DNA of 64,000 nt, from contig CAVGVF010000001.1 in assembly GCA_963632615.1 (NCBI GenBank), positions 72,636 to 136,635 on the forward strand. Direction: 5' to 3'. Positions 7,833-64,000 of the stretch are shown here, one piece after another (positions within the stretch are counted from its first letter, which is position 1; every line of letters starts with the position of its first letter). Below the pieces are notes generated by a model. It was not told the DNA's origin, ran no database searches, and saw nothing but the letters and a program-made list of their open reading frames with translations. The stretch is from an uncultured Eubacteriales bacterium (GTDB lineage Bacteria > Pseudomonadota > Alphaproteobacteria > RF32 > CAG-239). Position numbers and translations under genes: made by a program.

Positions 7833-8039
7833 AATCTAAAATATTAAGGGTAAATAAAATAAATTAACTCAATAAACATAAGTAAAATAGATATTTCCTC
7901 AAAAAAAGAAAACAACGAAAATTACAAAACATAATTTCAACTATAATACTTATATTAAACAATTTCAGTATAACGTATTTTTAGCTAAATGACAATATTA
8001 TTTGTTTATTTTTAGTCAAAAAAGTGCTAGTATGCAGTT

Positions 8040-9134
8040 ATGATAAGCAAAGAAGAATATAAATGGTTGGAACACCATACGGATATTTTGAACAATGTGC
8101 CTGATATAAACGATTACGCACAGCAAAATATTAAGTTTAAAGTATATCGCCCCGGCCATGTTCAAAAAATCAAAAATATCTTCAAAGAATATCAGTGTAT
8201 CAGCGGCCAAAACAAAAATGATATATGGGTAAAAGTCAAAGGCTTAACTATTGATGATTTTAACGACATTGCCGGCCGCTGCTCGGCGGATTTGATTTAT
8301 GATATGTCGGCGCATGATATAAACTATATCCCTATGAATAAAAAACATAATTACAAAATCATACGCCGTTCCACCGCTAAACTGCTTTCAAATTTAAACA
8401 ACCGTAAAAAGCTGGATATTTTATTTTCTTTTGCACAAGGAATTTTTACTTCTGACAAAAAATATAAACGCCAGTTTGACTTTATTGAGCAAAACAGCAA
8501 CAAATTTATTGCTTTGCTTCAGCTTAAAATCAACAAAGATTTTATGCGCCAAGAATATAAAAAAGTTAATAAAATAACCGAACAAATAACAGCTCTTCCG
8601 AATATTCGAAAGAAATTGGAGAATTTTGCCTTATTGCCTAAAACTGAACAATTCAGCCTTTTGAAAGAAACCAGTCGCATTACCGCTGAAGTGAACGGCG
8701 TAACACCGCCAAACATTCATTTTATTACAAATAAACAGGCTCATAAGGATTCCAAGATTGCAGAATGGGTGCAAACCGATGCTTACGCCGGTTTTCATGA
8801 TATTTACATCAACAAAGATTTATTAAAATCATACAGCGGTATAGAAGCCTTGTCTTTGGCTTTTCATGAAACCACGCATATTGCTCAATCTAATTCTGAT
8901 TATTCTGAATTTCCGGAAATTGAAGAGATGTTCAGCCACCGTTTAGACTATCTGCAAAACCATGCCGATACCTATACAGCCATACCGATGGAAATGGTAA
9001 CTTATAACCTGGAGCAGGAATTTTGCGAACAGCTTGACAGCAAATTAAATATGAAAATGCACGATTACGAGTATGAAACCGAATATAATAATGCGCAGCA
9101 ATATATGATTAAAGCCTTGCGCCGCTCCCGCTAA
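8040..9134 (+). CDS. hypothetical protein with HExxH zincin-like motif (DUF4157-like signature HETTHIAQ)
   Basis: Motif LAFHETTHIAQ followed by an acidic segment (EFPEIEEMF) that could supply the third ligand. No signal peptide. Upstream flank 7840-8040 is very low GC. Confidence 0.45.
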   Translation: MISKEEYKWLEHHTDILNNVPDINDYAQQNIKFKVYRPGHVQKIKNIFKEYQCISGQNKNDIWVKVKGLTIDDFNDIAGRCSADLIYDMSAHDINYIPMNKKHNYKIIRRSTAKLLSNLNNRKKLDILFSFAQGIFTSDKKYKRQFDFIEQNSNKFIALLQLKINKDFMRQEYKKVNKITEQITALPNIRKKLENFALLPKTEQFSLLKETSRITAEVNGVTPPNIHFITNKQAHKDSKIAEWVQTDAYAGFHDIYINKDLLKSYSGIEALSLAFHETTHIAQSNSDYSEFPEIEEMFSHRLDYLQNHADTYTAIPMEMVTYNLEQEFCEQLDSKLNMKMHDYEYETEYNNAQQYMIKALRRSR

Positions 9135-32768: not shown

Positions 32769-35700
32769 TTAGAACTTATAGCCTAAATTGAACAGATAAT
32801 AAACATTGCTCTTTTGTTCAAGCGGAGCGTTTACAGTCGCGCTGAGCGAAAGTTTTTTATAGTCGTACTGCGCCTTTACAGTCAATAAACCGCTGTCGCG
32901 CTGCAAACGGTTGCTGTTGATTTGATATGAGCCAAGCATATTGTCCATGGTCACCATCGTTGAATATTTGCTGCCGAATTCATGGAAATAACGCCCGCCG
33001 GCAGTCAGCAAAACAGACTGTTCTTTGCCGAGGTCAAAATCTTTCTTAATATCCATACCGATAACAGATTGAACTGATGTAACTTTGTCGCTGTCGGCTT
33101 TAAGTCCGCCGTTATTTTCTTTTAAGCCGTCAACTTTTACTTCAGTGATATTAGCGCCGGCAACCGGTTCAAGCTGCGCGATGTCAAGGTCTATAGTTTG
33201 GCGGGCTTCAGCGTCAATACCATAGTAGTAGTTGGTTAAATCAGCCTTATAGGCTTTATCCACGCCGCTGCGGCTGTAGTGACCCTTGCCGAAACCGATT
33301 TTAGGCTTAGCCATAGCGCGGAAATTATCATTGCTATAAGTCAGCGGAGCAAACACTTCCAGCACATTGTTATAACGAGATGAATCGTCATCAAAATCGC
33401 TGTCGCTGCGAGCCGCCGCCGCACCGAAACCTGCACGCCAGTTATTGGCAATTTGATAGTCGCTGAAACCGTAAACAGCTGTAACCTTGTCTTTATAGCC
33501 CGAAACATTGTGTTTGCCGTCAAACTCTTGCTGATAAGCCAAAACATTAACTTTAGCACGGCTTATTTCATTTGTTTGCGCCAAAATATCGTCATTGGCC
33601 GCGCGGTTGATATTGGCCAGCAAATCTAAGTCTTGTTTCGCCAAATTCGGAATCATGCTAAAGCCTAACTCGCGGTTTATAGCCGTATCAAAAGCCGAAG
33701 CAGTAGCCATACCTTTTAAGGTATTGAAAACGCCCTCGCCTTTTTGCGCTGCATAGTTTGTGCTTAAATATGCCGCCAGCTCTTTGTTGGCAACAGTTTC
33801 ATCAAACGATTTCATAGTCATAATTACGTCGGTGTTGCCGGATTCGTTAGCGGCTTTTTCAGCATTAAACATATAAGAGCCGGAAACCACATTTAGACCT
33901 GCATCTTTGCCGATAAATGAGTTATCGTTGCGGTAGGTCGTTTCAAATCCGCTTTGGGTAATATCCGCATCGGCTGTAACCGTGCCTTTTAAGGCCGGAG
34001 CTTTATAAGTTCCGTTTTTGCTGATGGCAATAACACCGGAATCTTTTGTTGAAGCATCAAAATCAAAAACATCATTATAGCTTACGGTGCCGTGATTTTT
34101 AAACACAGAGTTGTTTTGCACCATCATAAATCCGGAGCCTGACTGAGTTGACGTGCTTTCTTCACAGTCCATGCCGCTGCACAGTTCAGCACCGTTGACG
34201 GCATCTATAATGCCGTTATTGGTTGCGGTTCCGCCTTCATTTACGATAATGCCGTAAGATGTGCCGGATTGATTATTTTGGTTTATATAAATTCTTCCGT
34301 CGCTGTCGTTGGTAAAGGTTCCGCCTGCAACTCTTACGCCGGCTGAATTTGTACCGTAAACATGAATTTGGCCTTTATTGGTAACTTCGCCTTTTTCAAT
34401 ATAAATACCGGTGCCGCGGTCAACAAAATCTGTAATAATCACATTTCCGGAATCATCAAAACTGCCGGTGCCGATAGTAATCAGCCCGCTGTTTTCAAAA
34501 TTAGCTTCTTCGCCGGTAACTTTTACACCGTAGCCGTTATTGCCGATAACAGTTATATTGCCGGTGTTTTTGCTTTCTCCGCCGCTGACAGACATAGCCG
34601 TGCTGCCGGCTCCCGTCACTTTGATGTTTGAATTGTTGGTAGTTGTTCCGGCTGTTTCAATGCCGGTGCTGTAGTTTGTGCCGACTTCAATAGAGCCGTT
34701 GTTCTCAACAGTTCCTTCATCCGAAACAGAAACAGCCGTATTGCCGCTTCCGCTGTTGTTGCTGCCCAAAACCAGCTCAATGTTGCTGTTGTTGGTAAAA
34801 GTGCCTTTGCCGGCTATAACCGCTGTGCTGTTACTTGTGTTATTCAGGCGCAAAGTGCCGTTGTTGGTAATTTTTGTGCCTGTGCCGCCTGACGAGGCGT
34901 CAATGATGGTGCCTTTTTCAGTAATAGATATCTGCACATTGTCATTGACCGTTAAAGAAGCATTATCCATCAGTTTCGCTAAAGTTCCCTGTTCAAAGCT
35001 CATGCTTTTTTTCAAGGTTAAATCGCCGACTACCAGAAAATATGTCATGGTGGAAGCGGCTTCGGTGCTGCAATTTTCATCTGTAGTCGGATCGCAGATA
35101 TTAACGTTGCCGATATTGTCAATCACGGCTTTGCCGCTGATTTGGAATACGGTGGCGTTAGTGCCGAAAATTTTAATAATATTGTTTTTTATAACAGCGC
35201 CGTCCTGCAGTTCGCCGGTTCCGGCCGAATAAATGCCGATATTGTTATCTCCGTAAAGATTGATAACGCCGTTATTATATATATAGCTGTTTCCGGTGGC
35301 GTAAATGCCGAACGAATATTTGCCGTTTACGTTTATTACACCGGTTTTGTCGTTGATAACGTTGGCAATTCCGCTTGCATCGCTGGCCATGCCTACAGAA
35401 TAATCTGTTCCGACATCAATGCTGCCTTGATTCGTCATTTTTGCCGTGGAAATAACATCTTTATCCATATACATGCCGGCATTGTTGAAATTAGTGCCGT
35501 TTGAAGTCAAAATGATTTTACCGGTATTGGTTGCCGTACCTTGTTTTGAAGATACAGTCATTGCCGAGGTATGCGCCGATGACAGATTGATTGTACCGGA
35601 GTTGGTTATGGTTTCGGTTTCGGATGAGGCAACGGATGAGGTGGATGACGGAGATTTTGTGTTCATCACGCTTTGCTTTACGGTTAAAGTGAATTTGTCG

Positions 35701-37865
35701 GCCAAAGTGGCTGCTTCGCTGGACGAGCCGGAGCCTGACGAACCGGAAGAGCCGGATGATGAAGATTCATCATTCAGAGTGGCATCGTAAATGATGGTGC
35801 CGGCATTTACCAAGTTACTGTAATTTCCGCTGAAAACATCGGTGCCGATGGCGTTTTTATAAACATGGATGGTGCCGTTGTTTATCAGATTTGTTCCGCC
35901 GCTGTAGTCATTTCGGAGGGCTGTCGATTTATTTGAATAAATGTTAATCTGTCCGTTATTTACCAAAGATGTCAGAGTACTATCGCCGGAGCCGTACATG
36001 GCGATATTGTTGGTATAGCGGGTATTGTCGCTGGAACCCAGAGTAATTGTTCCGTTTTTATCATTCAGCAATGTTCCGCCGTTATATGAAGCCATTCCGA
36101 AGCCGTTGCTGGCATTTAACTGAATATTGCCTTTGTTGGTAACTGTTTGCTTGGTTGTGGTATATAGTCCGGATACCGAACCCGAACCTTCAACTGCAAG
36201 CATACCGTAGGTCATGCGCTGGTTATCGCCGTTAGTCTGAATGGTAATGTTTCCGGTGTTGGTAATGCTTCCGCTGTGAACAGACTGCATGCCGGCGGCA
36301 ACGGCAACAGAGTCTGATGAGCTTCCGGATTCGGAACTGTCATCTAAAGTAATATTGATTTTTCCGCTGTTGGTTGCCGTTGTATTGGCGTCTGCCCGCA
36401 TTCCGACAATTCCGCCCAAGCCTTTGCGCAAAGTTTTGGTTGTGTCAAAGGTGTATTGCCCCGTATATCCCAAATCTATGATACCGCTGTTGCTCAAAAC
36501 AGATTTATCGGCTCTTTGAATATTTTTAGAACCATTTAAAAATCCATCGTCCAAATAGCTTCCCATACCGATGATATTCACTTTGATTTCCGAGGCAGCG
36601 GCTCCGGCATCGCCGGCGCTGAGTTTTATGGTGCCGCTGTTTGAAGCTGTGTTGGTTTGATTGATGGCTTGCGAACCGGTATTCAGTATCATTGTTTCCA
36701 TACCGATAATGGTGCCGGATACGGATGTAACTTCCTTGGAACTGCTGTCGGAATTTTCATCTTGAGCAAAAATACCGTTCAGAATGCCGCCCGAAGAACT
36801 GCCGTTTTCAGAATCATCTTTGGTCGGGTCGCTGATTGCTTTAATGGCCGAACCGTTAATTTCTCCGGTATTTATAATCTGCGAGCCGTTATCGGCATAC
36901 ATACCGATAATCGTGTTGTTTTCGGTATATCCGGAAAAATTGAGGTTGATACCGTTGGCATCAGGGTCTTGGATAACCCCTTTTCCGTTATTGTAGGCAA
37001 TGGAATTATTGCTGGCAATCATCGCCACTGAATTATTAAACGCGTCAACATTTATATAGCCGTTGTTTGTAACCGTGCTTTTGCGGATTGCCGCCATTGC
37101 GGCCGAGCCTTCTCCGGCGGATATTTTAGTGTTCAGGCTGTTTGTGTATGAGCCGCCGTCAAGGGCTTCCAAGCCGACATCCATATATTTGCCGGCTTCC
37201 AGTACATTTTTATTGAAGTTAATTTTAGCGATTTCCGCTGTTTTGGTGTTTTTTATGTTTAATAAGCTGCTGTTTACGGCTGTTCCGCTGGTTGATTTTG
37301 CCACAGAGCCTTGCGAGCCTAAGGTTTCGCCGATATAGTTATTAGTTTCGGTTTCAGAGCTGCTGCTGCCGCCCCCGCCGCCTCCGCTCATTGCTAATGC
37401 GGCAATACCTCCGCCGACAGCCAAGCCGCCCAGCAGCCACCAGGTTGTAGAGGAGATTTTATATTTTTCTTTGCCCATTGTTCCATAAGCTTCACGAGGG
37501 GTTGCGGTTACGGAAACAGCTTTGGAATTGTTTACAAAATCTTCATAATATTCTATTTTTTGCACGCATGGATGGCGAGGGTTAGCTCCGGCGGCGCGGA
37601 AGGCATTGTAGGTGTAGGCATCTCTGTTTTGGGCGGCAACGCAAAGTCCGGTGTCGCCGTTTTGGTTGACACTGTCAATATTCATACCGCGGCGGACAGA
37701 AGCTCTCAAAGCTTCAACTTCGCCGTTTTGCGCCAGATTATACATTTTATTGAAAGACAGCGGCGACAAATTATAGGCTTTAGCCTCAGGCGCGGCTATA
37801 GTCAGGCTGAAAGACGCCAAAGACAGTAAACCAACGGTTTTTAGTATTATTTTGTTATTAAACAT
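32769..37865 (-). CDS. large autotransporter (type Va secretion) with beta-helical repeat passenger
   Basis: Sec signal MFNNKIILKTVGLLSLASFSLTIAAPEAKA; Gly/Ser linkers; dozens of degenerate N(N/S/T)G(T/N)I beta-helix repeats; C-terminal ~280-aa beta-barrel ending ...LFNLGYKF. Confidence 0.8.
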   Translation of the reverse strand: MFNNKIILKTVGLLSLASFSLTIAAPEAKAYNLSPLSFNKMYNLAQNGEVEALRASVRRGMNIDSVNQNGDTGLCVAAQNRDAYTYNAFRAAGANPRHPCVQKIEYYEDFVNNSKAVSVTATPREAYGTMGKEKYKISSTTWWLLGGLAVGGGIAALAMSGGGGGGSSSSETETNNYIGETLGSQGSVAKSTSGTAVNSSLLNIKNTKTAEIAKINFNKNVLEAGKYMDVGLEALDGGSYTNSLNTKISAGEGSAAMAAIRKSTVTNNGYINVDAFNNSVAMIASNNSIAYNNGKGVIQDPDANGINLNFSGYTENNTIIGMYADNGSQIINTGEINGSAIKAISDPTKDDSENGSSSGGILNGIFAQDENSDSSSKEVTSVSGTIIGMETMILNTGSQAINQTNTASNSGTIKLSAGDAGAAASEIKVNIIGMGSYLDDGFLNGSKNIQRADKSVLSNSGIIDLGYTGQYTFDTTKTLRKGLGGIVGMRADANTTATNSGKINITLDDSSESGSSSDSVAVAAGMQSVHSGSITNTGNITIQTNGDNQRMTYGMLAVEGSGSVSGLYTTTKQTVTNKGNIQLNASNGFGMASYNGGTLLNDKNGTITLGSSDNTRYTNNIAMYGSGDSTLTSLVNNGQINIYSNKSTALRNDYSGGTNLINNGTIHVYKNAIGTDVFSGNYSNLVNAGTIIYDATLNDESSSSGSSGSSGSGSSSEAATLADKFTLTVKQSVMNTKSPSSTSSVASSETETITNSGTINLSSAHTSAMTVSSKQGTATNTGKIILTSNGTNFNNAGMYMDKDVISTAKMTNQGSIDVGTDYSVGMASDASGIANVINDKTGVINVNGKYSFGIYATGNSYIYNNGVINLYGDNNIGIYSAGTGELQDGAVIKNNIIKIFGTNATVFQISGKAVIDNIGNVNICDPTTDENCSTEAASTMTYFLVVGDLTLKKSMSFEQGTLAKLMDNASLTVNDNVQISITEKGTIIDASSGGTGTKITNNGTLRLNNTSNSTAVIAGKGTFTNNSNIELVLGSNNSGSGNTAVSVSDEGTVENNGSIEVGTNYSTGIETAGTTTNNSNIKVTGAGSTAMSVSGGESKNTGNITVIGNNGYGVKVTGEEANFENSGLITIGTGSFDDSGNVIITDFVDRGTGIYIEKGEVTNKGQIHVYGTNSAGVRVAGGTFTNDSDGRIYINQNNQSGTSYGIIVNEGGTATNNGIIDAVNGAELCSGMDCEESTSTQSGSGFMMVQNNSVFKNHGTVSYNDVFDFDASTKDSGVIAISKNGTYKAPALKGTVTADADITQSGFETTYRNDNSFIGKDAGLNVVSGSYMFNAEKAANESGNTDVIMTMKSFDETVANKELAAYLSTNYAAQKGEGVFNTLKGMATASAFDTAINRELGFSMIPNLAKQDLDLLANINRAANDDILAQTNEISRAKVNVLAYQQEFDGKHNVSGYKDKVTAVYGFSDYQIANNWRAGFGAAAARSDSDFDDDSSRYNNVLEVFAPLTYSNDNFRAMAKPKIGFGKGHYSRSGVDKAYKADLTNYYYGIDAEARQTIDLDIAQLEPVAGANITEVKVDGLKENNGGLKADSDKVTSVQSVIGMDIKKDFDLGKEQSVLLTAGGRYFHEFGSKYSTMVTMDNMLGSYQINSNRLQRDSGLLTVKAQYDYKKLSLSATVNAPLEQKSNVYYLFNLGYKF

Positions 37866-54901: not shown

Positions 54902-55081
54902 CAACGCTCAAAACTCATCAACTGAAACATTTCAGCAACAAATTTCATATAACAACATACAGATATGATTTTAAAAATCAATGTATTTTTTTATAAAAGT
55001 GCAAAATTTATGCAAAATTTTTACCATTTACCGAATATAGTAGCCCATGATTATTGTAAAAATAAAGAGTTAGAGGGAAAA

Positions 55082-57190
55082 ATGAGCGCTAAAAATCCTG
55101 AAAAAAAATTGAAAAAAACTGATAAAACCGAAAATTTTGCTTTGCCTGAGCAGCCGGAAAGCTGGTTTGCCAACGGATTGCATCGTTTTATGATTGTTTT
55201 TAGCGTGATGTGGTTTGGTATTGTGGCTGTTTACATTACGGAATTTTTTGGCTGGGATAATCTTTTTTCTATGGTGCCGAATGAATTTAGCGGTTTTATG
55301 GCCGGTATGACGCTGCCTTTGGCTATTGTTTGGGTGGTTATGGCGTATATTGACCGCGGCAGCAGCTTTCGAAACGAGACACAGATGCTGCGCGATTCGC
55401 TTAATCGAGTGATTTTTCCGGATTCTAACGGCAGTGACGCTACTAAAATGATTGCTGATGCCATAAAAGCACAGGTTTCCGACTTAAAAGAGACTACCCG
55501 GGATGTCTGCGCTCAGGCCGATGTGATTAAACGCGATTTAAGCGACCGTATAGCCGAAATGAAATCGCTTGCCGGCGAATTAGACACCTACTCTTCGCAA
55601 ACAATGCAGGAACTGAATTCAGAAATTAAAAAATTGGTTGAAAACTTTACGTTTGTGGCCGAAAAAGCCGCTTCCACAACTGCTGATTTTAGGGTTAATA
55701 CTTTGCAGATGCGTGAAGACAGCGAGCAGCTTTCCAATATTATGAAGCCGATGGTTAATGAAATGGTTACAGCTGCCGAAAATATTAAAGAGGTTGTGAA
55801 TGTAAACAATGAAAATATAGAAAAAGCTCAAGCGCAGCTCAATAATTATTCGGAATCCAGCCAGCTGGCGATTGGGCGGATTATTGAATCATGGGCTGAA
55901 AAAGGCGAAAATCTTGAAAAAACATTTTTGCGTACAGCTGAAAATTGCGAAGAGCTGTTTCATCGTTTGGATTCCGGAATATCGCATATCGAAACCAGCA
56001 TAAATGAGCAAAAAACCGTAGTTGAACAGCAGTCGGCTATTTTGGATAAAAACTCCGGCTATCTGGATAAAAAGCTTGGCGAGTACGGCAAGCTTATCAG
56101 TTTGGAAGTAGAAGCTATGATTGAACGTTCCAATACTTTGGAGCAAAATATTCAGACTCAGATGAAAAATATGCGTGAAGCCTCGGCTCAAACCGAAGAA
56201 ATTTTCGGCCGTTTGGGCTCTGATATAGCCAATAAACGCCAGCTGCTGGAAACTGAGGGCAGCAGAATGATTAACAATATTCATCTGACTATCGGCACAC
56301 TGGGCGATGAAGTGGCGCGTTTACAGGATTTTTATAAAAATACGCAGGACAAAAACAGCGAGCTGGGCAAAGTTTTTTCTTCTATTGCTCAAACATTAAA
56401 AGAAATGGAAGACGGCTTGCTTGCCAGCGTTAATAATTTCAGTACCAAAGCCGGCGGCGTGGTTGATAAATTTAATGAGGTAAACAGTCTTGTTTCCGGA
56501 AATATCGGTAAGTTATCTGAAACTGCCGACAGCATTGCCAACCAAAGCAAAACCAATGCCGGATTGCTGATAGAACAAGATGAATATGTCAACAAAGCTC
56601 TGGGCAGCTTAAAGCAAATCAGCACGCAGATTTCCGCTTTGAATAAAGATATGTCGGCATCTGCCGGCAGTATCGGCAAAACATTGTCTGTATATGAAAA
56701 CAAAATGTCGGCGTTCAGCAAAGCTTTAGGCGAGCATTTGACTGATTTGAACGAAAATTATGATAAAACTCAAAAGCAATATGATGAATTTAATCAAAAA
56801 TTTAAGGTTGCGAGTATTGATACGTTTATGAAGAATTCTGCCGATATTATCAGCGAATTAGAGACTATTTCCATTGATATTAACAGTATCTTCAACAAAA
56901 CCGGCGATGACGAGGCTTTATGGAAAAAGTATTATGAAGGCGATCATAGTGTGTTTGTGCGCTATCTTTCTAAAAATATGACCAAAAAAGAAGTGATAGC
57001 CGTGCGTGAAGATTACGAAAAGAAGCCGGATTTCCGTGTTGTGGTTGACAAGTATCTGGATGATTTCAACAGCCTGATAGAAGCGGCTCGCAGCAATAAC
57101 CGCGCCAGTACTTTGCTTGCTTTGATTTCCGGTTCGGATATCGGTAAAGTTTATTATATCTTGTCACGCGCTTTAGGAAAGGTAAACTAG
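55082..57190 (+). CDS. membrane-anchored long coiled-coil protein
   Basis: RBS AGAGGGA; two or three N-terminal transmembrane helices then ~600 aa of heptad-rich Q/E/K/N sequence. The track ORF starts at 54965, upstream of the RBS. Confidence 0.5.
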   Translation: MSAKNPEKKLKKTDKTENFALPEQPESWFANGLHRFMIVFSVMWFGIVAVYITEFFGWDNLFSMVPNEFSGFMAGMTLPLAIVWVVMAYIDRGSSFRNETQMLRDSLNRVIFPDSNGSDATKMIADAIKAQVSDLKETTRDVCAQADVIKRDLSDRIAEMKSLAGELDTYSSQTMQELNSEIKKLVENFTFVAEKAASTTADFRVNTLQMREDSEQLSNIMKPMVNEMVTAAENIKEVVNVNNENIEKAQAQLNNYSESSQLAIGRIIESWAEKGENLEKTFLRTAENCEELFHRLDSGISHIETSINEQKTVVEQQSAILDKNSGYLDKKLGEYGKLISLEVEAMIERSNTLEQNIQTQMKNMREASAQTEEIFGRLGSDIANKRQLLETEGSRMINNIHLTIGTLGDEVARLQDFYKNTQDKNSELGKVFSSIAQTLKEMEDGLLASVNNFSTKAGGVVDKFNEVNSLVSGNIGKLSETADSIANQSKTNAGLLIEQDEYVNKALGSLKQISTQISALNKDMSASAGSIGKTLSVYENKMSAFSKALGEHLTDLNENYDKTQKQYDEFNQKFKVASIDTFMKNSADIISELETISIDINSIFNKTGDDEALWKKYYEGDHSVFVRYLSKNMTKKEVIAVREDYEKKPDFRVVVDKYLDDFNSLIEAARSNNRASTLLALISGSDIGKVYYILSRALGKVN

Positions 57191-59650: not shown

Positions 59651-61474
59651 ATGAGTATGAGAAACATTGCCATCATCGCCCACGTTGACCACGGTAAAAC
59701 TACCTTGGTAGACGGGCTGTTGCGCCAAAGCGGTACATTCCGCGATAATCAAAAAGTAGCCGACTGCGTTATGGACAGTAACGCTTTGGAGCGTGAAAGA
59801 GGTATTACCATTCTTTCTAAATGCACTTCTGTTGATTGGCACGGTACTCATATAAACATTGTAGATACTCCGGGACACGCTGACTTCGGCGGCGAGGTAG
59901 AGCGTATTTTATCTATGGTTGACGGTGTTGTTTTGCTGGTAGATGCCTCCGAAGGCCCGATGCCGCAAACCAAGTTCGTTTTAGGCAAAGCTTTGAAAAT
60001 CGGCTTAAAACCGATTGTGGTTATTAACAAAGCCGATAAGCCGGATGCCCGTCCGGACGAAGTTTTGAATGAAATTTTTGATTTGTTCGTAAGTCTGAAT
60101 GCTAATGACGAGCAGCTGGATTTCCCTATTTTGTACGCTTCAGGCCGTAACGGCTGGGCTGTACGCGATTTGGCGGACGAACATAAAGATTTAACTCCGC
60201 TGTTTGAAACTATTTTGTCTTATGTCAGCGAACCGGTCTGCGAGCCGGATAAACCGTTTAGAATGCTGGCAACAACTTTGGAATCCGATAAATTCGTCGG
60301 CCGTATTCTGACCGGTAAAATCCAGAGCGGCAGCGTAAAGGTTAATGACGCTGTAAAAGTTATTAACGAACACGGCGAAGTAGAACGTGCTAAAATTACC
60401 AAAATTATGGCTTATAAAGGCTTGGAGCGTGTAGCTTTGGATTCGGCTCATGCCGGCGATATTGTGGCTGTAGCCGGTATTGTTAAAGGCACGGTTGCCG
60501 ATACTATCTGCGCTCCGGAAGTGGATGTAAAAGACTATATTAAGGCTCAGCCGATTGATCCTCCGACATTGGCTATGACTTTCTCGGTAAACGATTCTCC
60601 GCTGGCCGGCAAAGAAGGCGACAAAGTTACTTCCCGCGTGATTTGGGCGCGTTTGGAAAAAGAAGCTGAAGGCAATATCGCTTTGAAAATTTCCCGCACC
60701 GATAATTCCGATACCTTTGAAGTAGCCGGACGCGGCGAGCTGCAGCTCGGCGTTTTGATTGAAACTATGCGCCGCGAAGGCTTTGAGCTTTCTATTTCCC
60801 GTCCGCGCGTTATTATGAAACGTGATGAAAACGGCCAGCTTCTGGAGCCGGTTGAAGAAGTTGTTGTGGATGTGGATGAAGAATTTTCCGGCGCTGTGGT
60901 AGAAAAATTGAGCAAGCGCCGCGCTGAATTGGTAGAAATGATTCCATCTCAGGTCGGCAATAAAGTCCGTTTGATTTTCCATGCTCCGTCCCGCGGCTTA
61001 ATCGGCTATCACTCCGAATTTTTGACAGATACCCGCGGCACCGGCGTGATGAACCGTATTTTCTATGCTTTTGAACCGTATAAAGGCGAGATTGAAGACC
61101 GCCGCAACGGTGTGATGATTTCCAGCGAGAACGGGCAGGCTATTGCCTATTCATTGTGGAAACTGCAAGACCGCGGTCCGATGTTTGTGGAACACAACAG
61201 TCCGGTTTATGTCGGTATGATTATCGGCGAGCATACAAAATACAATGATATTGAAGTAAATCCGACCAAGTCTAAGCAGCTGACAAACATTCGTGCTGCC
61301 GGTAAAGATGAGGCGATTGACCTTATTCCGCCGCGTAAATTGAGCTTGGAACAGGCTTTGGCTTATATCCAGTCGGATGAGCTTTTGGAAGTTACTCCTA
61401 AATCTCTGCGTCTGCGTAAGCGTATTTTGGATCCGATTGCCCGTAAGCGGGCTAAGCCTGAAACAGCCGAATAA
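59651..61474 (+). CDS. typA: translational GTPase TypA/BipA
   Basis: G-domain motifs [18 protein letters not shown]; 607 aa. Confidence 0.95.
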
Positions 61475-61481
61475 AATTCTA

Positions 61482-61504
61482 AAGCGCCCTTGCGGCGCTT
61501 TTCT
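61482..61504 (+). terminator. intrinsic terminator after typA
   Basis: agcgcccttgcggcgct followed by a T-run. Confidence 0.7.
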
Positions 61505-61558: not shown

Positions 61559-62125
61559 ATGTCTGAAGCAGATGCCCATAGAAAGTGTCCGGAATATTGT
61601 CCGTTTTTGAAAGCAAATAATACTTTTTGCGAATTATTTAAACGTGCTTTGCAGCAAGTTGCCCGTCTTCCGCAAAAATGTGAAGACTGTCTTAATCCGG
61701 AGCAGCGTATGGCATCTTATCAATCGCTTGGCCTGTCCTTGAACAACCGCATAGAAATGTGGCAGAAGGCTGTGGTTAAACACAATGAGATAGAGCTGGG
61801 CAAACACCGTGAAGAAGAGGCTCTGCGCCAAAAATTTGCCGCATTTTTAACAGATAAATACGGCGATAGGCCGCCGCTTGACGGAAATACCTATTTGAAC
61901 AATTTGGTAATCAATCTTTTTATGGTTTTGGATAATACCGAACGGCACATGATGATGTCCGTATTAAAAAGCAAAGGAGGGCTTTCATTGCTGCAATCCA
62001 TTGATAAAGCTCCGAAAGATGACTCTTTGCTGCGTAATATCCGCCGAGAGCTGGATTCACATTATCAGGAATATCAAAAATCTTTGCAAAATTCTATGTC
62101 CGGACGTGAAAACGTGCGTTCTTAA
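61559..62125 (+). CDS. hypothetical Cys-rich protein
   Basis: RBS AAAGGAAAA; N-terminal CPEYCPF...C...CEDC cluster. The track ORF starts at 61490, upstream of the RBS. Confidence 0.4.
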   Translation: MSEADAHRKCPEYCPFLKANNTFCELFKRALQQVARLPQKCEDCLNPEQRMASYQSLGLSLNNRIEMWQKAVVKHNEIELGKHREEEALRQKFAAFLTDKYGDRPPLDGNTYLNNLVINLFMVLDNTERHMMMSVLKSKGGLSLLQSIDKAPKDDSLLRNIRRELDSHYQEYQKSLQNSMSGRENVRS

Positions 62126-62186
62126 TTCTGTTGATTTTTTGTCAAAAACATGCTATTATTCCCAAAAATGTATATAAGGATTTGCA

Positions 62187-64000
62187 ATGTCAAAGGAAAC
62201 CATGCTGCTGGCGACGGCAGACAACCATGTTATAGCTGTTGAGCTGGAATATAACAATAACGCAGAAAAAAGCCGCAAGATGCGCTTATATGAGCGTTAT
62301 TGCGAAAATTTGAATTATCATGATTTTTATCAGATGTTCAATAATTTTGCACATTCTAACAGTTACGGCAGCGCCTTGGAAAGAGAGTTTTTTTTGCAGG
62401 TGGATTCTCCAAATACGGATTTTTTAAATCGGGAAATTACCGGCTATGATTTTGTTAAAGCGCCGCAGTTATATCAAAATAATGTTATAACAAATAATTA
62501 TCCGTCAAATATAGCCGCAAAAGCTAATACGGTGCATTTTGATAATCATGTTGATGATGCTGATATTCCGCAGTTGATTAAAAATCTTGGCTATAAAATT
62601 GAGCCGGAAGACAATGTATATGATGTGCGCTATGATGCAGCCAAGCAGCAATATGAAGCAGTCGGCTTAAAGCGTCGCCGCGCTTCGGTAAATGTAAGCA
62701 AAAAGCGTGTGAAATTGATACGCAATCATTTTACTTTTCCGCCTGCCGAATATGCCGTGCTGCAAAGATTGCTGTCTGATTGGAACAGCCGCCGCCGTAC
62801 AAATCCGGATTTAACTATCGGAAAATTCTGCAAGACCATCAGCGATGCCAAAGAAAGAAGCTTGTTTACGATATATGCTATGGAACAGACAAATGTAAAT
62901 CATCGGATTCTGCTGTTAAGGCATGAGCTTACCCATGTGAAAAACAGTGCGCTGCAAGCCGGATTTGGCTTGAAAAAAAGGGCTAAGCGCCTGTCTGTGG
63001 AGGATTATTACCGTTTGCAGGTAGAAGATGAGCGCAGTGCGTATTTATCTCAGGTTGTTAATGCCGCCAATATGTATTTAAAAAACGGCAATCCGCAAGA
63101 TTTTACCATGTTTGACGGCGAGGCCGGCGCTTTGGTAAAGGCTCTGAAAAGAATGCCCGAAAGCAGCCGTTTTTCGTATGTTTCAAATACGGAAAACTTA
63201 ATGGATGCGGCTTTTAATTCATTTGCTAAAAATCACCGTAATGAATATGACAGCGTCCAGTTTATCAATAATATGAAATTAGAAATGCAAAGAATTCCTA
63301 TGAGTGCGGAAGCTGATGCAAACCGTGAAGAATTTTTTAAGCGGCGTTCTTTGTATTACCGCTATCAGCTGTATAATCCGCAGACCGGGAGTTATGAGCA
63401 TAAAAACTTTACGCCGTTAATCAACGATTCGCGTGAAGTGAATTTAAGTCAGGATAATATAACGAATATCATAGAGCCTTGCCGGCAAATTGTTACGCGC
63501 CGCTTGGCTGAATTTAACCGCGATAAGAGCAGGGGAGAAATAAACCCGGCATTGGTTGAAGAGGCAAAAGCGCTGATGCGTGATAATTTGCATAAATCGC
63601 GGCTGATAAATAATATAAACGGCATAGAAGTTTCTGACTTGGCGGATGACAATCAGCAGCCTGTTTCTCAGCCGGCGCCGCAGCCGCGGAATCCTGCTGC
63701 GTGGAGCAGAGGGCTTGAAGCTTATTGGAGTAAATTTGACGGATATAAAGAGATTGCCAACACAGAGCAAGAATATTCTTTCAGTATAAAGGAAGGTACA
63801 ATAAAATATACTGAGCAGAGTAAAGTTCAGGTCAGCAAGGATGCGCAGTATGAAGCGTATGTAAAATTGCTGCAAGAGCCAAGCAATAAGGCTAAGCCGG
63901 TTATATTCAAAGATACTTTAACGGAAGAGCAAGCCTTGAAATTATATGTGGCTTGTGTTAATAGCAATCGCATAATGAAAGGTGCTGTGCCGCGGGATTT
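62187..64000 (+). CDS. large hypothetical protein with HExxH motif (DUF4157-like HELTHV), 3' end outside window
   Basis: RBS AAGGA then ATG at 62187. The frame is open for at least 604 codons to the window end. Motif LLLRHELTHVKNSALQ. Absent from the ORF track because no stop lies in the window. Confidence 0.55.
   Translation, partial: MSKETMLLATADNHVIAVELEYNNNAEKSRKMRLYERYCENLNYHDFYQMFNNFAHSNSYGSALEREFFLQVDSPNTDFLNREITGYDFVKAPQLYQNNVITNNYPSNIAAKANTVHFDNHVDDADIPQLIKNLGYKIEPEDNVYDVRYDAAKQQYEAVGLKRRRASVNVSKKRVKLIRNHFTFPPAEYAVLQRLLSDWNSRRRTNPDLTIGKFCKTISDAKERSLFTIYAMEQTNVNHRILLLRHELTHVKNSALQAGFGLKKRAKRLSVEDYYRLQVEDERSAYLSQVVNAANMYLKNGNPQDFTMFDGEAGALVKALKRMPESSRFSYVSNTENLMDAAFNSFAKNHRNEYDSVQFINNMKLEMQRIPMSAEADANREEFFKRRSLYYRYQLYNPQTGSYEHKNFTPLINDSREVNLSQDNITNIIEPCRQIVTRRLAEFNRDKSRGEINPALVEEAKALMRDNLHKSRLINNINGIEVSDLADDNQQPVSQPAPQPRNPAAWSRGLEAYWSKFDGYKEIANTEQEYSFSIKEGTIKYTEQSKVQVSKDAQYEAYVKLLQEPSNKAKPVIFKDTLTEEQALKLYVACVNSNRIMKGAVPRD

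Follow-up and report, generated by a model that had tools for sequence, protein, structure and literature searches.

A conserved HExxH protein and its Cys-rich neighbour in the core genome of uncultured Alphaproteobacteria from gut and rumen

We report that the last gene of a 64,000-nucleotide stretch of contig CAVGVF010000001.1 (the window), from an uncultured alphaproteobacterium, is real, conserved and of no described family. The part of the gene inside the window (62187..64000, + strand) encodes residues 1-604 of a protein of about 646 residues, here called the large protein, which carries an HExxH motif; 62 nt upstream lies a gene for a small Cys-rich protein of 188 residues (61559..62125, +). 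The large protein remains a conserved hypothetical with a good catalytic-motif lead. The reading that we favour, and to which we give about even weight, makes it a lineage-specific hydrolase of zincin type that works in the cytoplasm, has a targeting domain tethered to it and is partnered by a conserved metal-binding protein.

The ATG at 62187 follows a ribosome-binding site, AAGGA (62176..62180, +), at a distance of 6 nt and opens a frame that has no stop for 604 codons, up to base 64000, just as the original prediction described it; the gene is missing from the list of open reading frames (ORFs) supplied with the sequence because that list omits ORFs that run off the window end. A search of 5.8 billion protein clusters returned 68 homologue clusters at 35-98% identity, all of 630-702 residues and with 99-100% query coverage. 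The closest, P0001, is 98% identical and 646 residues long, and from this length and those of the other homologues we conclude that the window cuts off only the last 42 codons. A frameshift or early stop, which the same prediction had named as the mark of a pseudogene, is thereby ruled out: the homologues are full-length and end 42 codons past the window end. M1 is invariant in the homologue alignment, the ATG and ribosome-binding site are retained in the DNA of nine loci, and a purine-rich GGAG or AGGA occupies the ribosome-binding-site position in all aligned loci.

The HExxH reported by the original prediction, with its acidic residues downstream, is found as HELTH at residues 246-250 (62922..62936, +), where H246 and H250 are two proposed metal ligands and E247 the proposed catalytic base; the proposed third ligand, E282, opens the E282-R283-S284-A285 segment (63030..63041, +) of VEDERSAY. 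Relatives were collected with a family profile scored against 1.84 billion representative proteins, which gave 180 matches, 134 of them covering the site. Among these 134, E247 and E282 are kept throughout, H246 and H250 in 132 each, A285 in 122 and N253 in 118. The two relatives without HExxH (P0218 and P0235, both distant core homologues) have the two His replaced together, by Tyr and Lys, with E247 and E282 still in place, and are possibly inactivated relatives of the enzyme. The only invariant positions in an alignment of 30 sequences that extends to 15-24% identity are M1, G135, H246, E247, H250, E282 and A285, and HExxH and E282 are retained in relatives down to about 16% identity. Judged by sequence conservation, the HExxH of the large protein is not a chance motif. 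The invariant HExxH expected of a gluzincin-type zincin is present, and on motif grounds the protein appears gluzincin-like, a likeness that stops short of demonstrated membership of any known family. To our knowledge, no described family has the flanking motif HExxHxKN ... E[RK][ST]A.

An AlphaFold model of P0001 (mean predicted local distance difference test score, pLDDT, 88.7; predicted template modelling score 0.72) places HExxH on a helix spanning residues 240-260 and E282 on another spanning residues 271-300. H250 and E282 stand at matching distances from the loop between the helices: 10 residues remain in the first helix after H250, and E282 comes 11 residues into the second. In such an arrangement H250 and E282 would face each other in an antiparallel helical hairpin, as the ligands of glutamate-zincins do. 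In the reading that we find most likely, the large protein is a soluble, cytoplasmic hydrolase that depends on a metal and has the layout of a glutamate-zincin: a zinc ion would be held by H246 and H250 from one helix and by E282 from the antiparallel helix after it, with E247 activating the water. The core would be tethered through a flexible Pro/Gln linker to a domain of about 125 residues that matches no described one. This domain and a basic tail could together form a targeting or partner-binding module, a role we suggest because other proteins carry the domain too. The small five-Cys protein would itself bind a metal and act on the enzyme as a regulator, inhibitor or chaperone. The data show that the gene is real, its motif invariant, its product modular, its synteny and promoter conserved and no known family matched; metal binding, hydrolysis, subcellular location and the partner relationship of the pair are inferred.

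The large protein is modular. Its core, about residues 60-470 (62364..63596, +), also occurs alone in proteins of 440-500 residues and embedded in longer ones among the matches of the profile search; matches such as P0182-P0199 span profile positions of about 60-470 at E values of 1e-70 to 1e-10 and contain no Pfam domain above threshold. The distant core homologues sit on short contigs, where gene context is uninformative. The Pro/Gln-rich linker noted in the original prediction, QPVSQPAPQPRNPAA at about residues 490-504, belongs to a disordered segment at about residues 487-504 (63645..63698, +), with pLDDT below 50 at residues 487-498, and its length and composition vary among homologues. 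In P0053 it is enlarged to GGNTPP/DNGGNTPP repeats (alignment columns about 545-590), and we conclude from this expansion that the length of the segment is free to vary.

Beyond the linker lies a predicted alpha/beta domain, of which the first 100 residues fall within the window (63699..64000, +) and which spans about 125 residues in full (505-630); in the AlphaFold model strands at 521-549, 572-574 and 597-599 are mixed with helices. This domain recurs in dozens of otherwise different proteins, of 285-1104 residues and with other N-terminal regions, often in mid-protein and followed by long charged low-complexity regions; neither the isolated domain nor the proteins that carry it match Pfam or the PDB. 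The last 30 residues of the large protein have a net charge of +4.3 (range +2 to +7) vs about 0 for the whole protein. The final residue is Arg in 62 of the 68 homologues and Lys in none, though Lys is the commoner residue overall, and ends such as GR, GGR and NDGR are also seen on unrelated proteins with the same C-terminal domain. There is no signal peptide and no transmembrane segment in the large protein; Kyte-Doolittle maxima over 19 residues are 0.67 to 1.11 in four members of the family and at most 1.21 over all ten proteins scanned.

A paralogue with the C-terminal domain, P0246 (701 residues), was observed at locus L046 (4740-8106), where it follows a Pfam-less protein of 397 residues and adjoins leuS and holA; the two genes may form another two-gene unit. 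A candidate paralogue of the domain in L003 was rejected: the 847-residue neighbour there is a different, Cys-rich and secreted-looking protein. A paralogue elsewhere in the window was likewise rejected.

The small protein has the N-terminal Cys cluster that the original prediction ascribed to it, CPEYCPF-x8-C-x16-CxxC (C10, C14, C24, C41 and C44; 61586..61690, +), presumed to be a Zn or Fe-S site. It has 96 homologue clusters at about 57-96% identity, most of 183-212 residues, with one shorter match that covers only 68% of the query. Across 33 homologues C10, C14, C24 and C44 never vary and C41 is retained in at least 90%; an alignment of five loci keeps all five Cys without exception. From this pattern the small protein probably binds a metal, Zn or Fe-S. 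The copy in the window matches neither Pfam nor NCBIfam, and Pfam domains were recorded in only two clusters, both longer ORFs in which the matches fall in extra sequence resembling a neighbouring gene. In an AlphaFold model pLDDT is 85-93 at residues of about 81-180, a helical C-terminal domain, and 55-65 in the Cys region; a Foldseek search of the model against the PDB gave no match. The protein is soluble, has the same clade restriction as the large gene, is far better conserved, and adjoins the large gene in every upstream context that we read. That it could be a dedicated chaperone, as had been suggested from gene order, is plausible; its high conservation and its absence beside the large gene in six loci leave that role short of established.

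Scanning one genome for each species of GTDB gave 40 loci, from at least 40 species-level metagenome-assembled genomes (MAGs). The carriers come essentially all from human gut, rumen or horse faeces and are labelled Alphaproteobacteria, Rhodospirillaceae or proteobacterium; the named sources of homologues are Alphaproteobacteria bacterium MAGs. A search of the literature on this gut clade turned up only 16S surveys. Three loci (L009, L010 and L012) are titled 'Bacteroidaceae bacterium' or '[Ruminococcus] gnavus', yet have the alphaproteobacterial order typA, small gene, large gene, mnmE, and their TypA is 99.5-99.8% identical to that of the window; these bins look mislabelled or contaminated.

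Every long locus that we read has the order small gene, large gene, mnmE, mnmG, a PHP-domain gene, rsmG, parA, parB, an 81-residue ORF and dnaE, and in 36 of the 39 GTDB loci that could be assessed mnmE lies downstream of the large gene. Upstream of the pair lie dus, trkA and typA in the window and most relatives, polA and an unrelated 847-residue gene in L003, and secA and a 250-residue gene in L051 and L052, so the trio of small gene, large gene and mnmE persists under three upstream contexts. In 31 of the 38 GTDB loci that could be assessed, the large gene has the small gene immediately upstream of it; in one more the two are 1.4 kb apart, and they also adjoin each other in L001-L005, L051 and L052. 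The Cys-rich gene is thus a consistent neighbour in related genomes, where the original prediction had asked that co-occurrence be checked. The G+C content around the locus, 0.43, equals the window background, and tblastn against 72,556 plasmids and 50,697 phages returned no homologue; on both counts we reject an origin in a mobile element. The pair is a vertically inherited, lineage-specific core-genome cassette and not an island. The suggestion of an effector family made from the window alone fits poorly with this background G+C, the syntenic core neighbourhood of housekeeping genes and the absence of plasmid or phage homologues.

Several results weigh against the hydrolase reading. No profile from Pfam, NCBIfam, PADLOC or the PDB sequences joins the large protein to any peptidase family, an outcome that the original prediction had itself named as telling against its proposal; Pfam, NCBIfam and PADLOC gave no meaningful match of any kind, and PHROGs only a sub-significant one (E=0.005) to a family of unknown function. 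Foldseek searches of the model against 350,542 PDB chains and BFVD returned nothing at E<0.001, with no peptidase among the top 50 matches listed, and for this reason a canonical zincin fold is not demonstrated; compared with solved peptidase structures, no zincin fold is recognisable. The geometry of H246, H250 and E282 set out above is deduced from predicted secondary structure alone. The large gene occurs without the small gene in six loci, within the available upstream flank of 1.6-4 kb, so partnership in cis is dispensable. Comparison of the window with L003-L005 gives identities of 38-45% for the large protein and, for the same pairs, of 61-69% for the small protein, 70-74% for MnmE and 92-93% for TypA; housekeeping enzymes do not usually evolve so much faster than their neighbours, and the rate suits a protein facing other organisms. 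A cytoplasmic role also leaves the basic, Arg-terminated tail unexplained. Profiles built from the whole family, from a diverse alignment of the core and from the C-terminal domain gave only noise when run against PDB sequences (oligoribonuclease, YizA and CDC14, all at E>0.1), and neither the large and small proteins nor the distant relatives had a significant match in Pfam, NCBIfam, PADLOC or PHROGs scans.

The fast evolution and the tail would fit a translocated effector protease. On that account, which we consider rather unlikely, the C-terminal domain and Arg-terminated basic tail would be a bipartite export signal, working as BID and a basic tail do in VirB/VirD4 substrates of Alphaproteobacteria; the same machine would also translocate the other carriers of the domain, and the small Cys-rich protein would be a chaperone or self-protecting inhibitor. 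Bipartite signals for type IV secretion systems (T4SSs), made of a domain plus a basic tail, are established in Alphaproteobacteria (PMC6509941). The tail charge, the Arg that ends 62 of 68 homologues to the exclusion of Lys, the GR, GGR and NDGR ends on unrelated carriers of the domain, and the joining of variable N-terminal regions to one shared domain all favour it, and the consistent adjacency expected of an effector or toxin with its cognate partner is seen in 31 of 38 loci. Against this, the domain is predicted to be alpha/beta and not the four-helix bundle of BID, it matches nothing in the PDB or Pfam, including XVIPCD or BID, and in many paralogues it lies in mid-protein, hundreds of residues from the C-terminus. 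No type IV or type I secretion domain was found in the ORFs checked, which covered the 64-kb window and flanks of up to 8 kb in the fetched loci of relatives, and the fixed core-genome position, background G+C and lack of homologues in plasmid and phage collections speak against the account as well.

A second alternative concerns the chemistry. The HExxH...E site may not be proteolytic, being instead a structural metal site or that of another hydrolase (an amidase, or one acting on nucleic acids or lipids) in a new fold. The lack of structural or sequence likeness to any peptidase favours it, as do the only faint echoes obtained, which are RNase-H-like and all insignificant (HIV integrase core at a probability of 0.2-0.3; oligoribonuclease at E=0.55). 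In contrast, the Glu of HExxH is invariant in all 134 relatives, a hallmark of a catalytic base rather than of a purely structural site, and in the predicted model the spacing and helix placement match those of glutamate-zincins. We regard this alternative as fairly improbable.

A broader version of the export idea starts from the modular set of proteins as a whole: the domain of about 125 residues and the Arg-terminated tail would be a sorting signal for an export or localisation machine, and the HExxH protein, alone of the set in being fixed in the core genome, a translocated protease held in check by the five-Cys protein that is encoded upstream. We judge this quite unlikely.

Membership of DUF4157, now named eCIS_core (PF13699), in one toxin family with the 364-residue HExxH protein at 8040-9134 (+) of the window, is scarcely credible: both proteins have HExxH with acidic residues downstream and both genes follow promoter-like stretches that agree at 26 of 31 nt, but none of the 30 sequences scanned matches PF13699 (at E<=10 for the large protein of the window and at E<=1 for 29 full-length homologues), and the profile tests led us to drop both the DUF4157-like label and the shared signature class that had been proposed with it. 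BLASTP between the large protein and the 8040 family gives E>1, and hhalign a probability of 0.3-0.5% over 12 aligned columns only; this 12-residue stretch around HExxH is all that the two families have in common. The 8040 protein itself scores 12.7 bits (E=0.15) against PF13699, below the gathering cut-off of 22 bits. Its narrow family (17 clusters at 46% identity or more, including P0307, which is 100% identical to it) has an invariant FHETxHxAQ ... ExE motif with E293 and E295.

The two-gene unit is bounded upstream by a terminator-like hairpin (61481..61501, +; an 8-pair stem with 5 G-C pairs, then TCTTTATT) that follows typA/bipA (59651-61474), a gene identified by the TypA domains recorded on its orthologue in relatives' loci. 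Within the 62-nt spacer between the small and large genes lies a conserved sigma-70-type promoter element (62129..62159, +) with a -35 TTGATT, an extended -10 TGCTATTAT, and between them 17 nt that contain TTTTGTCAA. The sequence TGTTGATTTTTTGTCAA is exact in 23 loci, and of the 38 GTDB loci that could be assessed 34 each have a single match to the 19-mer TGTTGATTTTTTGTCAAAA with at most 3 mismatches. These matches sit in the spacer just upstream of the large gene, including in loci without the small gene; because the element is conserved even there, the large gene has its own conserved promoter. By this measure the -35 and the spacer are more conserved than a promoter alone needs. A reading of the TTGA-N7-TCAA element as an FNR/FixK box was rejected, as the spacing is N7 and the centre lies near -28, not -41.5; the canonical box has a spacing of N6. 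The element has no counterpart at the paralogue locus of L046, where nothing like TGTTGATTTTTTGTCAAAA was found.

A 31-nt stretch before the 8040 gene, TGTTTATTTTTAGTCAAAAAAGTGCTAGTAT at 8003-8033, is identical to the 62129-62159 element at 26 of 31 positions. No other site in the window comes within 7 mismatches of the element, and none of 60 simulated windows reaches 5 or fewer. A gap of 6 nt separates the end of its -10 from the ATG at 8040, and the mRNA of this gene may therefore be leaderless. The GTCAAAA part is not retained in the one orthologous locus read (L053), and an operator shared by the 8040 gene and the large gene is therefore unproven.

Three other features were recorded in passing. 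An ORF of 1698 residues at 32769-37865 (-) carries a C-terminal autotransporter beta-domain (PF03797, E=6.5e-25) and is a type V secreted protein; its passenger region matches no Pfam family at E<=1e-5. All four long loci have, between parB and dnaE, a conserved Pfam-less ORF of 80-81 residues (L001 16634-16876; L003 16736-16981; L004 16771-17016; L005 16647-16892). Directly upstream of dus, and conserved there in the relatives, is a protein of 700-760 residues (window 54965-57190, +; L001 899-3007; L004 900-3008; L005 773-3049) with an N-terminal hydrophobic region, a long coiled-coil-like body and no Pfam domain above threshold.

If the enzyme assignment is true, the large protein would represent an undescribed zincin-like family without a PDB relative detectable by Foldseek, restricted to poorly known uncultured gut and rumen Alphaproteobacteria and fixed beside the mnmE-parAB region. 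The C-terminal domain and the Arg-terminated basic tails define a wider set of at least several dozen proteins, for which a common partner could be sought directly, be it a secretion machine, scaffold or protease adaptor. The annotation lead is corrected away from DUF4157, and H246, E247, H250, E282, the five Cys and the promoter element can now be tested.

We also compared the large protein with known systems. It shares with DUF4157/eCIS_core a short HExxH-containing stretch, and differs in that its motif stands at residue 246 of a big globular core; no gene of a contractile injection system was among those read near it. In alphaproteobacterial toxins and relaxases and in the Beps of Bartonella, the bipartite signal for VirB/VirD4 consists of BID, an antiparallel four-helix bundle with a hook, and a basic tail (PMC6509941). 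The large protein resembles this arrangement in its shared domain followed by a basic tail, and the positively charged C-terminal tail of such substrates is indeed present; the BID fold is not, since the domain mixes strands and helices and has no PDB match. The domain further differs in being predicted alpha/beta without sequence or structural likeness to BID, in having no T4SS in view nearby, and in lying often far from the C-terminus in paralogues.

X-Tfe effectors of the bacteria-killing T4SSs of Xanthomonas and Stenotrophomonas combine a variable catalytic N-terminal part with a C-terminal XVIPCD of about 120 residues and a polar, Gln/Asn-rich tail, and have immunity genes adjacent to them. 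The large protein is similar in all of these features of layout, down to the small cognate gene adjoining it. It differs in its fixed core-genome locus, and the small protein, unlike their immunity proteins, has no signal peptide or lipobox; XVIPCD itself was not detected, with no Pfam match among full-length members or isolated C-terminal domains and no PDB match. The glutamate-zincins, with the HExxH...E site of thermolysin type, offer the closest comparison for the core, which differs from them in its size, about 400 residues, and in having no profile or fold match to MEROPS-type families in Pfam or the PDB. As in those enzymes, the predicted model has the HExxH on one helix and an invariant Glu, some 32 residues further along, on the subsequent one; the His pair has been lost only jointly, in two apparently inactivated relatives.

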